Positions 20,384 to 32,025 of a stretch of DNA of 64,000 nucleotides are shown piece by piece. Both the position numbers and the translations under genes were made by a program. This stretch comes from a virus, in IMG/VR virus record IMGVR_UViG_3300023296_001674; one strand, written 5' to 3'. Every line of letters starts with the position of its first letter. The stretch's first letter is position 1. The notes under the pieces are model-generated. The model was not told the origin of the DNA. It searched no databases and saw nothing but the letters and a program-made list of their open reading frames with translations.

Positions 20384-20437
20384 GATCGTATAAATATAAA
20401 ACATAAACAATAAAATAGAAAAATAGGAAAATACAAT

Positions 20438-22735
20438 ATGACGGATTTGAGAGTATTCAAAAGCTATAGATCATTACATCCCGGTATGGGGCAAGCGGTA
20501 GCAGAAAGAACTATATTACGAAAAAAAGAAGATGACACATGGGAAGATTGGGGCGACGTAGCGGATAGAGTAGCATTAGGCAATTCTCTTTTATGTCCAG
20601 AAACAAAAGATCAAAATCCAGAATATAAATTACTTAAAAAACATATCGCTAAAGCATCATTATTGATGAGTGGTAGACATCTACAACACGGCGACGGTCA
20701 TCAACCTAAAAGAAATATGGAAGTATTCACTAACTGCGCCACTGCTGCATCTAGTTTTGTTTTATTCTATCTCCTATTGAATGGTTCCGGCGTTGGTCGC
20801 TGTTACGATGATGATATGATTTTGGTGAATTGGGACAATGCTCCCAATATCCGGTGTGTTTTGGACGAAGATCATCCAGATTTTGATTGGTCTGCGCACG
20901 AATCATCTAGAGATGCTATTCACAAATATGGCGAAGGTAAAGATACACTATGGTTTAAAGTTACAGACGATAGAGAAGGTTGGGCAAAAGCGCTTGAAAT
21001 ATGGGAAAATGCAGCTTTTGAAAAAATTCACCGTGATAAAACATTGGTATTGGATTTCTCATTGGTTCGCTGCAAAGGCTCTCCCATCGGCGGAATGCAA
21101 TCACGTCCAGCGTCCGGTCCTGTCGCACTTATGAATGCGTTTCAAAAGGCTGCTACATTAAAAGGCGCAGGTCTTTCACCTTGGAGACAAGCAATATACG
21201 TCGATCATTACTTTGCTGAGTGTGTTCTTGTTGGTGGTGCTCGTCGTGCGGCAAGAATGTCCACGAAATATTGGAAAGATGAAAACATTTTTGGTTTTAT
21301 AACAGTAAAGCGCCCCGTTGAATTTGCCGATAAAAAGTTTGATGATATTATGGAAATTCGTGCAGAAGCTGCATCACATGGTATATTGCCACCACAAGGA
21401 TTTTTGTGGAGTTCCAATAACTCAGTTGCAGTTGATGCTGAATTTTGGGAATTGGCTAATTTAAAGCGCGGTCATCCTAAATTTATGAATGCGATGGCAC
21501 AACAGGCCCGTAAAGTTCTTAAATTGGTTACAGAAGCATCTTATGCTGATGGAACCGGTGAGCCTGGACTTATTAATGTTGACAAATTGGTACAAAAAGA
21601 TGATGGTTGGGATGATTTAAATCGTGGCGATTTCATTGGTAGTGAAAAATACCAAATAGAAGATGATACACAAATATTAATTTCACGTCTTGCTAAAAAA
21701 GCAAAGCGTAAAAAATATCATACAATTACTAACCCATGTGGCGAAATCGCGCTTAATGTCCTTGGTGGATATTGTGTTATTGCCGACGTGGTTCCATATC
21801 ATGCTGATACTTTGGATGAAGCCGAAGAAGCATTCCGTGTTGCTACACGTGCATTGATTCGTGTGAACCTTATGGATAGCCTTTATAAAGAAGAAGTTAA
21901 ACGCACCAATCGTATTGGTGTAGGAATGACCGGCGTTCATGAATTTGCATGGAAATTCTTCAATTTGGGTTTCCGTGATTTAATTGACGAAGAAAAATCT
22001 AAAGAATTTTGGCTGACACTTAACCGTTTCAATGAAGCAGTGTACGAAGAAGCAAGAGATTATTCCGCACAGTTGGGCTTAAAAACGCCACACACGATGA
22101 CAACGATTAAACCTGCTGGAACTACCAGTAAACTGTTTGGGCTTACTGAGGGGTGGCATTTGCCAGCGCTGTCGTGGTATATGCGCTGGGTGCAGTTCCG
22201 TAATGACGATCCATTGGTGGTTAAATATTCATCTGCTGGATATCCAACACGCGAACTAAAGCAATATGAAGGAACCACCATTGTCGGTTTCCCAACCGAA
22301 CCAGCGATTGCTAGTTTAGGTTTGGGTGATAAATTAGTTACTGCTGGCGACGCAACACCAGAAGAACAGTATAAATGGTTGATGCTTGGTGAAAAATATT
22401 GGATTAACGGTGTTAATAAAGATGGATCAGAAAAGAAAGCCAATTATGGCAATCAAATTTCTTATACATTGAAATATAAACCAGATGAAGTTGATTTTAA
22501 GCAGTTTAAAGATATGCTGACTCATTATCAAAGCCAAATTCGTGCATGTTCAGTTATGCCACAAATTGATGCGGCAGCATTTGAATATCAGCCAGAAGAA
22601 TCAATTAATAAGGCTAAGTATGAAGAAATGATGCGTGCGATTGAACGCGTAATGGTTGAAGATATCGGCAAAGAGCATATTGATTGTGATACTGGTGCAT
22701 GTCCTGTAGATTTTTCTGCTGGTGAAAAAATATAA
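20438..22735 (+). CDS. nrdJ: Class II (B12-dependent) ribonucleotide reductase
   Basis: FTNC, LLLNGSGVG, VGGARRAA, TNPCGEI, TIKPAGT, C-terminal CDTGACP; no adjacent beta subunit. Confidence 0.85.
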   Translation: MTDLRVFKSYRSLHPGMGQAVAERTILRKKEDDTWEDWGDVADRVALGNSLLCPETKDQNPEYKLLKKHIAKASLLMSGRHLQHGDGHQPKRNMEVFTNCATAASSFVLFYLLLNGSGVGRCYDDDMILVNWDNAPNIRCVLDEDHPDFDWSAHESSRDAIHKYGEGKDTLWFKVTDDREGWAKALEIWENAAFEKIHRDKTLVLDFSLVRCKGSPIGGMQSRPASGPVALMNAFQKAATLKGAGLSPWRQAIYVDHYFAECVLVGGARRAARMSTKYWKDENIFGFITVKRPVEFADKKFDDIMEIRAEAASHGILPPQGFLWSSNNSVAVDAEFWELANLKRGHPKFMNAMAQQARKVLKLVTEASYADGTGEPGLINVDKLVQKDDGWDDLNRGDFIGSEKYQIEDDTQILISRLAKKAKRKKYHTITNPCGEIALNVLGGYCVIADVVPYHADTLDEAEEAFRVATRALIRVNLMDSLYKEEVKRTNRIGVGMTGVHEFAWKFFNLGFRDLIDEEKSKEFWLTLNRFNEAVYEEARDYSAQLGLKTPHTMTTIKPAGTTSKLFGLTEGWHLPALSWYMRWVQFRNDDPLVVKYSSAGYPTRELKQYEGTTIVGFPTEPAIASLGLGDKLVTAGDATPEEQYKWLMLGEKYWINGVNKDGSEKKANYGNQISYTLKYKPDEVDFKQFKDMLTHYQSQIRACSVMPQIDAAAFEYQPEESINKAKYEEMMRAIERVMVEDIGKEHIDCDTGACPVDFSAGEKI

Positions 22736-22752: not shown

Positions 22753-23163
22753 ATGATAAAATATGTTGTTGGGTTTTTATTCAGTAAAGATATAAAAAAT
22801 GTGTTACTTATTGAAAAAACCAAACCCGATTGGCAAAAAGGATCGTTGAATGGCGTCGGTGGTAAAGTTGAAGAAGGTGAAACACCACTTGATGCCATGA
22901 TACGAGAATTTCAAGAAGAAGCTGCCCTCAAAATAACTGAATGGAACCACTGCGTAGTAATAACTGGTGACGGTTTCGTTGTTGATTTTTATAGGGCATT
23001 TAGTGATGACATATATCAAGCCACATCATTAACGGAAGAACAAATACAAGTGTGTGATACATTTTCATTGCCTAACAATGTGATATATAATTTAAAATGG
23101 ATTATTCCGTTTTGTCTTGATAATAATTCACAAAAACCAATGAATATTACCCATATAAAATAA
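22753..23163 (+). CDS. NUDIX hydrolase
   Basis: GGKVEEGETPLDAMIREFQEEA NUDIX box. Confidence 0.92.
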   Translation: MIKYVVGFLFSKDIKNVLLIEKTKPDWQKGSLNGVGGKVEEGETPLDAMIREFQEEAALKITEWNHCVVITGDGFVVDFYRAFSDDIYQATSLTEEQIQVCDTFSLPNNVIYNLKWIIPFCLDNNSQKPMNITHIK

Positions 23164-23170
23164 GGAGATT

Positions 23171-23428
23171 ATGATGAATGTAATCGTATATTCAACAAAT
23201 ACATGCCCATATTGCGTGAAAGCTAAAACATGGCTTTCCACCAATAATATAAAATTTGACGAAATAATACTTGATAATCAAGATGACATTGCCAAATTTA
23301 AAAAAGATTGCCCAGGAAAAAATACTGTTCCACAAATATTAATCAATGATGAATTGATTGGTGGATGTGATGATTTAATGGCTAGACAAGAATATGTTCT
23401 TGATTTAGTTTCTGGAGTTGCAGTATGA
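23171..23428 (+). CDS. Glutaredoxin
   Basis: CPYC, TVPQI, IGGCDDL. Confidence 0.93.
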   Translation: MMNVIVYSTNTCPYCVKAKTWLSTNNIKFDEIILDNQDDIAKFKKDCPGKNTVPQILINDELIGGCDDLMARQEYVLDLVSGVAV

Positions 23429-24201
23429 GTTTTTTAGGAATACAGGATACATCAAATAACCGATATTTCCACTATTTAACTATCGAGCAGAATGATGTAG
23501 GTTTGGCTATTCACAAAATGCATTTGGATGATGAGGTGGTATTAGAGGTAGATGGAGTTTTCGCCGCAGAAAATATTATAATTAAAAAAATATTAGACGC
23601 ACAAACCGAAGATTCATATATTCCAGTGAATATAATAGCAGGTGCATCTAATGTTGGGCAAAAATCTAGACGTGGACGCGGTAATATATTGATTGTAAAT
23701 CCACATGCTAAATTAAATTTACTATATTGGCCGGGTAAAATACAAACCAGTGAATTAATACCAATAGACAAAGGTATTTGTATATATAAATCCCAAAGTG
23801 AGATTGACGCTATTGGATATTACACTTCTAGTGCGATTGTCGGTAAAGGATATTGTTTTTTACGTGAAAATTGGGAAAAATTTGCTTGTGTTGCGCCATT
23901 GACAAATATTGATTGGTCAGAAATGCAAGAAAAACAATACAAGTGGTCGAGAGAAACGTTTGGTGAGTCCACATTGGAATCTAATTTAGATCATTTACGC
24001 GATGAATTGGATGAAATAGTTGAAAATCCAAATGATATTGAAGAATGGGCTGACGTTATGTTATTATATATGAATGCATCAAGTTTTGTTGGATTTACAA
24101 TGGATGATATATATAAAGCAGTGCAGAAAAAATATGAAAAAAATGTAAAACGCAAATGGGGTAAACCCGATGAACGTGGCGTAGTTAAGCATGTCGAATA
24201 A
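23425..24201 (+). CDS. Fusion: reduced major-capsid-like N-terminal region plus dATP/dGTP pyrophosphohydrolase (DUF550/MazG-like)
   Basis: C-terminal WSRETFG..L.HL..E..E...EWADV...K...N..RKW; N-terminal SRRGRGNILIVNP and YKSQSEIDAIGYY. Confidence 0.7.
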   Translation: MSFLGIQDTSNNRYFHYLTIEQNDVGLAIHKMHLDDEVVLEVDGVFAAENIIIKKILDAQTEDSYIPVNIIAGASNVGQKSRRGRGNILIVNPHAKLNLLYWPGKIQTSELIPIDKGICIYKSQSEIDAIGYYTSSAIVGKGYCFLRENWEKFACVAPLTNIDWSEMQEKQYKWSRETFGESTLESNLDHLRDELDEIVENPNDIEEWADVMLLYMNASSFVGFTMDDIYKAVQKKYEKNVKRKWGKPDERGVVKHVE

Positions 24202-24862
24202 CGTTGGTGTAAATCCTATTATTTGCGCGTTAGATATGAACGACTATACAATATCGTCGAAATTGACACGTAATTTATCTCCTTACGTTGGTATGGTTAA
24301 GGTAGGATTAGAGTCGTTTATCTATGATCATTATGGTGCTATAAATGTGGCAAGCATGCATGAGGTTGATGTATTTTTAGACCTTAAATTTTATGATATA
24401 CCAAATACAGTAGAAAAAGCAATAAAGCCATTTACTTATTATAAATATATTAAAATGATGACTATCCATGGAAGTGGTTCTGTTGATATGATAAAAGCGG
24501 CGGTAAATGCAGCAGAAAATATAGATATTATCGCAGTTACATTGCTAACAAGCACAGAAGAAAAGAACGCAACTGAAATTGTATTAAAAATTGCAGAAAA
24601 ATCATTAAAAAATGGTGCTGCTGGTATCGTATGTTCTGCAAGAGAAGTGTTGGATTTGCGCAAAGAATTTGGTAATGATTTTAAAATCGTCGTTCCTGGT
24701 GTTAGACCAAAATGGTATACAACAAGCGACGACCAGCGTAGAACTGGAACACCAAGTGAAATAATAAACAACGGCGCAACGAATTTAGTTATCGGTAGAC
24801 CAATAACTTCATCAGATAATCCAGTTGAAGCAACAAAAAAGATATTAGAAGAATTAAAATGA
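24191..24862 (+). CDS. pyrF: Orotidine-5'-phosphate decarboxylase
   Basis: ALD, KVG, FLDLKFYDIPNTV, VTLLTS, PGVRP, DDQRR, VIGRPIT. Confidence 0.95.
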   Translation: MSNNVGVNPIICALDMNDYTISSKLTRNLSPYVGMVKVGLESFIYDHYGAINVASMHEVDVFLDLKFYDIPNTVEKAIKPFTYYKYIKMMTIHGSGSVDMIKAAVNAAENIDIIAVTLLTSTEEKNATEIVLKIAEKSLKNGAAGIVCSAREVLDLRKEFGNDFKIVVPGVRPKWYTTSDDQRRTGTPSEIINNGATNLVIGRPITSSDNPVEATKKILEELK

Positions 24863-25503
24863 GAACAGGATTAAGCCCAAAAGAATTCTTTAATGCAATG
24901 AAGAAAAAGCCTGCACTACAGGCAATACTTAATGCATTTGAAGCATATTCCATAGAAGAATTAGAAAATATCCACGGACAACCTCGTTGGATACGCGTCG
25001 TGTTGGTTGAATTGAAACAAGATGAACTTGGTGGCGTTATTGACGAAGGTGCAATATTACGTGCTGAACAAATCGCCGATATGATGATGAATTCAACCGA
25101 AATAAATGAAACACCCGAACCCATACAATACGAAGTACGTCAATATTTAGGCAACGATTGGAATATGTCTTGTGGCATGTCGGGTTCTATGTTGGTGGAA
25201 GTGAAATGCGAAGATTTATTATATGTTATGGAAGTAGATAGCCAAATAGAGAAATTTATTGTTGGTATGGAAAGTTCCGTGGGTATATTAACTGATATAC
25301 AATGGAATAGATTCTTGCAAAATTCAACATCGTTGGGTTGTATGACTAAAATAGAATATACTAAAAAAGTTGCAGAAAACAGTAAAGGAAAAATGACAAA
25401 AACACCGGAAGAGCGTGACATGATAGCAAAAACCGCTGGCCCTAGATCGTATGTTGATCCAAATCGACCAAGATTTGAGATTATACGTCATGAAGTAACT
25501 TAA
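24859..25503 (+). CDS. Hypothetical protein
   Basis: ORF coupled to pyrF. Confidence 0.6.
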   Translation: MRTGLSPKEFFNAMKKKPALQAILNAFEAYSIEELENIHGQPRWIRVVLVELKQDELGGVIDEGAILRAEQIADMMMNSTEINETPEPIQYEVRQYLGNDWNMSCGMSGSMLVEVKCEDLLYVMEVDSQIEKFIVGMESSVGILTDIQWNRFLQNSTSLGCMTKIEYTKKVAENSKGKMTKTPEERDMIAKTAGPRSYVDPNRPRFEIIRHEVT

Positions 25504-31243: not shown

Positions 31244-31633
31244 ATGAAACTTAATATAGACGATATAACAATGATTAAAGAGCCGGAATTAAAAATAGAT
31301 GATGGTATAGTATTCACCTTGCCAACCAGTAGATTGCATACATATGAGGTGACGCTAGAATGGCAACCCGTTGTGTTCACAATACTAGAAACCGACGAAT
31401 ATTCACACATCGTTGGGTCACAAATGCAACAGCAATTTGATTTTTTCGATAAAGAGTATGATCCTAACGCAAAATCATATAAATTTGATTTTGAATTAGA
31501 AGATTGGATTCTTTATGGCGCTTGGATCATGGAACTTGGTTATGATTCATTAAATTTCTTACAGCCCGAAGAAATAATTATCACTTTAACGTTACGATAC
31601 GAAAAAGCAGAAGAAAAAACAAAAACTACATAG
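31244..31633 (+). CDS. Truncated tail-tube-like protein (T4 gp19 family)
   Basis: WQP...T, VG.Q.QQQFDFF, YKF, W.LYGAWI..L.Y..L, ITLTLRYE.A. Confidence 0.6.
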   Translation: MKLNIDDITMIKEPELKIDDGIVFTLPTSRLHTYEVTLEWQPVVFTILETDEYSHIVGSQMQQQFDFFDKEYDPNAKSYKFDFELEDWILYGAWIMELGYDSLNFLQPEEIIITLTLRYEKAEEKTKTT

Positions 31634-31641
31634 GCATCAAT

Positions 31642-32025
31642 ATGGATATTAATATAGACGATATAACAATACTTGAAGAACCAATCTATGCAAAAAAAGA
31701 TGATGTGGTGCTTGAATCAGAAAATAGTAAGGCATTTATTTCATTTGATGAGTTTGAATGGAAGCCTATGGTGATTAATGTTAATCATACACAGAACAAT
31801 AATCATAAAATATCATGGCAACTCAATGAACAAGTGGCGTTTTTCGAACAAAATAACGGCAATGATTATAAATTCGATTTAAATACACATGATTGGATTA
31901 TTTATGACGCATATATTACCAATATCGTGTATCCTTCATTTGATATGGAAGTATATGAAGATGATACATATATCACTTTAACGTTACGATACGAAAAAGC
32001 AGAAGAAAAACAAAAAAAGACTTGA
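31642..32025 (+). CDS. Truncated tail-tube-like protein, paralog of 31244
   Basis: WKP, QL.EQ..FFEQ, DYKF, W.IY.AYI, ITLTLRYEKA; 22-bp and 40-bp terminal DNA identity with 31244. Confidence 0.6.
   Translation: MDINIDDITILEEPIYAKKDDVVLESENSKAFISFDEFEWKPMVINVNHTQNNNHKISWQLNEQVAFFEQNNGNDYKFDLNTHDWIIYDAYITNIVYPSFDMEVYEDDTYITLTLRYEKAEEKQKKT

Follow-up and report, generated by a model that had tools for sequence, protein, structure and literature searches.

The 64,000-nucleotide stretch of DNA analyzed here (the window) comes from IMG/VR virus record IMGVR_UViG_3300023296_001674 and is part of a 194-kb virus record whose completeness is estimated at 51%. It contains a gene for a 258-aa, two-domain protein (P0001), whose N-terminal ~160 aa very probably constitute an HK97-fold domain derived from gp23, the T4-type major capsid protein (MCP), fused to a PF04447 enzyme with intact acidic motifs. 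A previous reading of the locus, made without database searches (here, the sequence-only reading), had picked out three capsid-like strings in the protein, had described its N-terminal part as a miniaturized MCP relic fused to a deoxynucleoside triphosphate (dNTP) pyrophosphohydrolase in a nucleotide-metabolism operon, and had suggested that it might act as a non-assembling capsid mimic able to titrate capsid-sensing defenses of the CapRel or Lit type. All three strings are present in the 258-aa open reading frame (ORF), at aa 3-10, 76-93, and 119-133, and the gene has the following features.

23425..24201, + strand: whole gene for the two-domain protein P0001, 258 aa (from the ORF list and sequence)
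23414..23417, + strand: GGAG ribosome-binding site, 7 nt 5' of the ATG (from direct reading of the sequence)
23425..23904, + strand: predicted mini HK97/gp23-type domain, aa 1-160 (from structural models, fold searches, hhalign, and a genome scan)
23431..23454, + strand: motif 1, FLGIQDTS, aa 3-10; MCP counterpart IIGVQPMT, matched by position and structure only
23650..23703, + strand: motif 2, NVGQKSRRGRGNILIVNP, aa 76-93; MCP counterpart LIASRTRRGAGNWCVISP; R83, G86, and N87 family-invariant
23779..23823, + strand: motif 3, CIYKSQSEIDAIGYY, aa 119-133; MCP counterpart LIGYKGQGEIDAAAYY; Y121, K122, and D128 family-invariant
23929..24195, + strand: predicted PF04447/DUF550 MazG-like dATP/dGTP pyrophosphohydrolase domain, aa 169-257 (from Pfam)

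Relationship of the N-terminal domain to gp23

The record encodes a gp23-type MCP of its own (L001:1069-2259, 396 aa; PF07068, 260 bits), which carries IIGVQPM (78-84), RTRRGAGNWCVISP with RRGAGN (257-262), and GYKGQGEIDAAAYY (323-336), in that order. This protein shares 79.5% identity with the MCP of Sinorhizobium phage Phosso (469 kb) and 66-69% with those of Atu_ph07, PA5oct, and Vibrio 2.275.O; the clade comprises jumbo phages with genomes of 290-570 kb, and these sequences mark the virus as a jumbo phage whose head is of the T4 type. Smith-Waterman alignment of aa 1-165 of the fusion protein with the phage's own MCP gives a score of 57, compared with 30.8 +/- 4.7 for shuffled sequences (2 of 2000 shuffles scored as high), and the local alignment pairs aa 61-139 with MCP 236-348, placing motifs 2 and 3 colinearly; BLASTP alone detects motif 3 only (E = 0.002). 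For profiles, hhalign of the six-member protein family described below against an 81-sequence MCP alignment returned a probability of 96.2, an E-value of 2.6e-9, and a score of 66 (range 62.6-66.2), compared with 14.0 +/- 2.5 (maximum 22.4) for 150 column shuffles and 11.6 for the reversed alignment; both kinds of alignment score higher than expected by chance. At a relaxed threshold, the hhalign path is colinear from aa 5-161 against MCP 128-374 and pairs the E-loop strand, the spine helix (EAE...IL), RRGxGN, and YKGxxEID. When the family profile was used for a six-frame scan of the 194-kb genome, it matched only the fusion gene and the MCP gene, the latter at two colinear sites corresponding to motif 2 (E = 8.2e-4) and motif 3 (E = 0.099). 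PHROGs, NCBIfam, and PADLOC returned nothing for the N-terminal domain.

Motifs 2 and 3 are significant, whereas motif 1 falls short of significance by sequence and fits only by position and structure. The best match of the first 24 residues within the whole MCP is exactly residues 77-108, and structural alignment places residue 2-3 of the model of P0004, one of the standalone relatives, on residue 114-115 of T4 gp23. Position and structure thus support a correspondence between the first predicted strand of the protein and the GVQPM strand of gp23.

The HK97 fold builds the shells of tailed phages, herpesviruses, and encapsulins and normally occupies 230 aa or more. From an alignment of the six family members, AlphaFold2 (AF2) modeled the N-terminal domain with a predicted local distance difference test score (pLDDT) of 72.9 and a predicted template modeling score (pTM) of 0.72, and the same alpha/beta topology was obtained with P0004 as the target (pLDDT 76.0, pTM 0.73). 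In Foldseek searches of the PDB with both models, the top 50 matches were all HK97-fold capsid or encapsulin chains, with weak E-values (1.6e-3 and worse) and probabilities up to 0.97-0.99. In a Foldseek-independent VIA search of 48,161 chains with the model of the N-terminal domain, all 50 matches listed were likewise HK97-fold proteins of capsid, encapsulin, or phage-related type, including T4 gp24 (1yue), with Z-scores of 6.5-4.2 over 127-153 aligned residues that span nearly the whole model; these Z-scores are middling, and the argument for the fold rests on the unanimity of the matches listed. The best match of the P0004 model was T4 gp23 (7vrt; Z 8.8, root mean square deviation 3.2 A, 123 aligned residues, 18% identity), with residues 2-168 superposing on gp23 115-521; 6uzc and 5vf3 matched similarly, and the top 50 PDB matches in this search, too, were HK97-fold capsid or encapsulin chains throughout. 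Matches in BFVD were nearly all capsid proteins (best E = 5.5e-4), while the ESM Atlas gave no usable match, the ESM model of the domain being poor (pLDDT 0.49). With both profile and predicted-fold similarity to gp23 found, the description of the N-terminal part as a miniaturized MCP domain stands.

The modeled domain consists of strands at 2-8, 14-21, 26-33, and 40-42, a spine helix at 45-59, A-domain helices at 68-80, and strands over 88-158. It starts at the equivalent of MCP residue ~77 (T4 ~114), right after the N-arm, and has no counterpart of MCP 97-143, the insertion domain; the E-loop is cut to a short hairpin (aa 26-42) and the spine helix is halved to 15 residues, while the A-domain helices, the remaining sheet, and the RRGxGN and YKGxxEID motifs are retained. 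The N-arm, E-loop, and insertion domain are the lattice-forming elements of HK97-type capsids, and since the mini-domain has shed the N-arm/delta region and the insertion domain along with most of the E-loop, its assembly into a lattice is unlikely. In comparison with T4-type gp23 (PF07068) and gp24, the mini-domain shares the HK97 fold, the colinear RRGxGN and YKGxxEIDxxxYY motifs, and a GVQPM-like first strand, and T4 gp23 is both its best structural match and the one with the highest identity (17-18%). It differs in its length (~160 aa rather than 396-521 aa), in these losses and shortened elements, and in being below the Pfam cut-off, encoded in a metabolic operon, fused to an enzyme, and probably unable to assemble. 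Encapsulin shell proteins and the capsid proteins of gene transfer agents (GTA) and phage-inducible chromosomal islands (PICI), which are prominent among the structural matches, also represent the HK97 fold outside a conventional phage head gene; however, these are full-size shell formers of about 230-300 aa, whereas the mini-domain is roughly half that size and is without the lattice-forming elements.

Enzyme domain, operon, and family

Fusion to a dNTP pyrophosphohydrolase, as the sequence-only reading had proposed, is borne out by a PF04447 match over aa 169-257 (65.4 bits, E = 5.7e-18, profile positions 3-91 of 97, gathering cut-off 23 bits), and several PHROGs of the same enzyme type match these residues as well. 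In an alignment with MazZ (7ody; E = 0.031), the acidic motifs DELDE (193-197) and EEWAD (206-210) fall opposite EEIGE and EVAD, and the ExxE ... ExxD acidic helices of MazG enzymes bind metal. DUF550 proteins cleave dGTP and dATP, yielding dNMP and PPi, and fusions that join them to further domains are common (PMC12884076); the C-terminal domain is confirmed as a member of this family, and by sequence it is a predicted dATP/dGTP pyrophosphohydrolase with the activity documented for other members (PMC12884076). Like the DUF5664-DUF550 fusion of Acinetobacter phage SH-Ab 15497, a MazZ/DUF550 protein, it combines PF04447 and the ExxE/ExxD helices with an extra N-terminal domain, although here the partner is capsid-derived rather than DUF5664. 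The 194-kb record, itself 51% complete, yielded no match for PurZ (PF00709), and a role in Z-DNA synthesis is therefore not indicated.

The neighbors of the gene form the operon in which it lies.

20438..22735, + strand: class II (B12-dependent) ribonucleotide reductase (RNR)
22753..23163, + strand: NUDIX hydrolase
23171..23428, + strand: glutaredoxin (Grx)
24191..24862, + strand: orotidine 5'-phosphate decarboxylase (pyrF)

This RNR-NUDIX-Grx-fusion gene-PyrF operon is tightly packed, with ORFs that overlap or nearly abut: the ATG of the fusion gene shares bases with the glutaredoxin stop (ATGA), and its final 11 nt are shared with the start of pyrF. With these four nucleotide-metabolism genes around it and the MCP gene ~67 kb away, the gene does lie in a nucleotide-metabolism operon and not a head operon. 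A T4-late-promoter-like TATAAATA is found at 20389-20396 (+), 42 nt 5' of RNR, the first gene of the operon, and in scans for promoters and terminators, the motifs occurred at chance level. The fusion protein is recorded on 2 contigs, one of 570,750 bp. A 214-aa ORF at 24859-25503 (+), which overlaps pyrF by 4 nt and belongs to the same operon, has no Pfam match at E < 0.1.

The N-terminal domain defines a rare family. An exhaustive phmmer search of 1.84 billion representatives found four relatives at E-values of about 1e-5, and a profile search added a fifth, P0006; all five come from metagenomes and stand alone, with intact ORFs of 174-189 aa, and the six family members are 24-50% identical. 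Common to the relatives are the strings MTFLCxQP at the N terminus, KTRRGRGN, and LYKGxGEID, and about half of the 14 family-invariant positions coincide with positions that are invariant in 23 MCPs: R83, G86, and N87 correspond to MCP R258, G261, and N262, and Y121, K122, and D128 to MCP Y324, K325, and D331, while Q7 maps to MCP Q82 solely via the non-significant motif 1 alignment. P0002, found on AT-rich contigs from two samples, adjoins purF and an endolysin-like gene, and P0005 adjoins an ArsC-family (ArsC/Grx-like) gene; these neighborhoods are short and only weakly informative. A tblastn search (E <= 1) of 50,697 phage records yielded no further members, and none came from the viral contigs of IMG/VR, the genomes of GTDB, or the metagenome contigs of JGI. 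Fusion to the enzyme is unique to this phage, the other five of the six members being without it. Because the standalone family is intact and keeps the gp23-invariant residues, the mini-domain is, as far as its sequence can tell, not debris but an exapted module that has its own function, and the conservation of standalone members speaks against both a dead relic and an enzyme-dependent role. The word "relic" in the sequence-only reading is thus the part of that description that has to be given up.

Structural-protein fragments elsewhere in the genome

Several other partial copies of structural genes are present in the genome. An 87-aa ORF (P0007; L003:1339-1602, +, equivalent to G000:C1:161998-162261) lies 962 nt past the end of the window; it passes the Pfam Gp23 cut-off of 24.4 bits with 25.6 bits, matches phrog_138 (1.1e-6), and is a singleton in a collection of 5.8 billion proteins. 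Its residues 56-80 (AMSIIGVQPMAGPVGQIFTLKTKY) copy the most conserved segment of the MCP, the GVQPM block (MCP 74-98), with 17 of 25 aa identical compared with 9 of 25 matches at codon position 3, a difference that marks P0007 as an old copy under selection at the protein level. In T4, the copied MCP segment overlaps the Gol peptide. Within the window, a 129-aa ORF at 31244-31633 (+) is a truncated tail tube homologue that retains the middle and C-terminal part (E = 6.6e-13 to phrog_4542, covering its positions 77-180 of 214), whereas the gene for the complete tail tube is at G000:C1:67250-67834; the adjacent 127-aa ORF at 31642-32025 has no family match. A 233-aa frame 5' of the window (L092; G000:C1:76187-76627, +) holds the ATPase domain of Terminase_6N only (53.4 bits), and the frame for full-length TerL (533 aa, 76.8 bits) follows directly 3' of it; from its sequence, it could be either a partial duplication or part of a split terminase. 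Directly 3' of the MCP gene itself is a 262-aa ORF (L001:2364-3152, +) that begins FYVYIYY...FYVGKG, of the GIY-...-YVG type, and looks by sequence like a GIY-YIG homing endonuclease.

Possible roles of the mini-domain

The explanation that we favor, and that we put forward tentatively, is that this gp23-derived fusion acts as a surrogate of gp23. The mechanism by which it might do so, as a soluble mimic or decoy engaging a partner that recognizes gp23, is doubtful in its own right. Being without the lattice-locking elements yet keeping exactly the residues that gp23 holds invariant, the mini-domain would stay soluble and act in trans, and it would occupy a partner that normally recognizes the conserved core of the capsid protein; candidates would be a host immune protein that senses capsids or another host factor to which gp23 binds, for instance EF-Tu or a chaperonin. 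In this phage alone, it would also bring along a dNTP-cleaving enzyme. Non-assembly, the partner, and a protective effect are each points that we infer. Bacterial immunity is known to be triggered by the MCP, the tail tube, and the terminase (10.64898/2026.01.04.697583; PMC3014915), and since these proteins trigger sensors and the genome holds fragments of all three, a gp23 surrogate is the most economical reading, although the fragments provide only circumstantial support for the mimic idea. The Gol determinant is located in the most conserved region of gp23, its first quarter (PMC3014915), and Avs7/8/10 wrap the conserved A-domain of the MCP (10.64898/2026.01.04.697583). In T4, the Gol region of gp23 activates the Lit protease via EF-Tu. 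The mini-domain starts at the most conserved region of gp23, and it keeps the conserved A-domain, part of the capsid core that the CapRel, Avs7/8/10, and Lit sensors read. In contrast to the Gol, CapRel, and Avs triggers, which are parts of a real MCP that sets off immunity, the mini-domain is a separate protein that may bind, trigger, or block a sensor, and its Gol-like segment is the most degenerate of the three motifs. PADLOC gave no match, an outcome expected either way.

A number of points weigh against a gp23 surrogate. Motif 1 by itself is not significant, as the first 24 residues score 14.5 against 10.5 +/- 1.9 for shuffles (maximum 16.4); none of the family members reaches the Pfam Gp23 (PF07068) gathering cut-off of 24.4 bits, with sub-threshold matches in 3 of 5 members (10.9 bits, E = 0.3, for the N-terminal domain of the fusion; 20.8 bits, E = 2.8e-4, for P0004, the best); both AF2 models are built on a six-sequence alignment and have pLDDT values of 73-76; and the Z-scores of the fusion protein's own model do not exceed 6.5. 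The gene is absent from five jumbo-phage genomes whose MCPs are about 78-85% identical and is therefore dispensable for this type of phage, and no timing of expression can be inferred from TATAAATA, because its count in the window (11) equals that expected by chance (12.0 +/- 3.4). With regard to the mechanism, a trigger-like fragment could equally activate an abortive-infection sensor, and a decoy role leaves the fusion to the pyrophosphohydrolase unexplained. There is also no precedent for a phage-encoded MCP decoy in the literature searched or in the counter-defense review PMC13728456, and the literature searches gave none for truncated MCP decoys or minimal HK97 domains.

A wider version of the decoy idea would treat the set of soluble fragments, namely mini-gp23, P0007 with its Gol-like GVQPM block, the truncated tail tube, and the ATPase-only TerL copy, as products made apart from the structural modules that serve as decoys for, or competitive antagonists of, host sensors recognizing conserved structural proteins of phages. 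We consider this unlikely, but the pattern of structural-protein fragments in the genome needs explaining even if the decoy idea fails.

Among the other explanations for the mini-domain, the one that survives best, while still improbable, is that it forms rings or oligomers through A-domain contacts and thereby multimerizes the enzyme or tethers it in a nucleotide-metabolism complex. The position of the gene within the RNR-NUDIX-Grx-PyrF operon would suit such a role, as would the occurrence of purF and an ArsC/Grx-like gene beside relatives, the penton and hexon contacts that HK97 A-domains make (10.64898/2026.01.04.697583), and the frequency with which PF04447 domains are fused to others (PMC12884076). 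However, the short neighborhoods of the relatives carry little information, and because five of the six family members have no enzyme, enzyme scaffolding cannot be the ancestral role.

It is also conceivable, though quite unlikely, that the mini-MCP docks on gp23 capsomers or the prohead, where it would either carry the enzyme into or onto the head or modulate the assembly of a very large capsid, much like gp24 at T4 vertices. Homology to the MCP, retention of MCP-invariant residues, and membership of a jumbo-phage clade with genomes of 290-570 kb speak for this reading, and T4 gp24, found among the structural matches (1yue), provides a precedent for a specialized MCP paralogue. On the other side, the N-arm and the insertion domain have been lost, as has most of the E-loop, the gene is encoded ~67 kb from the head genes and amid metabolic genes, and it is missing from the closest complete jumbo-phage genomes. 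A predicted complex of the MCP with the mini-domain scored 0.10 (mark 0.32), which counts neither for nor against binding.

The possibility that the N-terminal part is a functionless remnant of a partial MCP duplication, fused in frame to an active enzyme that alone matters, is decidedly unlikely. The restriction of the fusion to this phage and the several other partial structural-gene paralogues in the genome speak for such a neutral event. Against it, the six members are intact ORFs that have diverged to 24-50% identity with the same invariant residues, and this strong divergence with the motifs retained speaks for long-term purifying selection; in addition, the fold is still predicted (pTM 0.72-0.73), and the GC content and third-position GC content (GC3) of the N-terminal domain agree with the rest of the gene.

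Finally, the reading of the N-terminal part as a degenerate trimeric dUTPase or dCTP-deaminase-like barrel, with YKGxGEIDxGFY as dUTPase motif 3, draws on a search of PDB sequences with the family profile, which has as its top match 3h6x, a dUTPase of S. mutans (E = 1.5e-4, 24.7 bits, 85 columns, over a stretch that holds motifs 2 and 3), ahead of T4 gp23 chains (E 2-3), and on the nucleotide-metabolism context in a 194-kb, 51% complete record in which a canonical dUTPase was not found. This reading is highly improbable, and a trimeric dUTPase was rejected: the two AF2 models are not all-beta but alpha/beta, and each contains A-domain helices and a spine-like helix of 15 residues, no dUTPase is among the matches listed by five fold searches, PF00692 matches no member at E <= 10, and the genome-wide scan with the family profile matches the MCP gene.

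Returning to the gp23 surrogate, what would be new here is a half-size HK97/gp23 derivative, supported in its ancestry and with a putative non-capsid role, that is fused to a DUF550 pyrophosphohydrolase. If the wider decoy reading is true, mini-gp23 would be the first MCP-derived anti-defense protein as well as the smallest HK97-fold domain described, and a gp23 surrogate located among metabolic genes, far from the head module, would offer a testable candidate for a new class of counter-defense. As a conserved 160-aa derivative that has left the capsid and joined a metabolic enzyme, the mini-domain indicates that the HK97 fold can be trimmed by roughly half and put to a use other than building a shell, and it offers a convenient minimal version of the fold for studies of folding and structure. 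Small, uncharacterized phage proteins resembling the model were also present among the BFVD matches, namely A0A9E7DVV6 (155 aa, probability 0.95), A0A0F6YPW4 (149 aa, from Sinorhizobium phage phiN3), H9YS96 (129 aa), and A0A8S5T8S6 (192 aa, annotated "capsid protein"). Judging from these matches, mini-HK97 proteins may be more common than sequence searches reveal.

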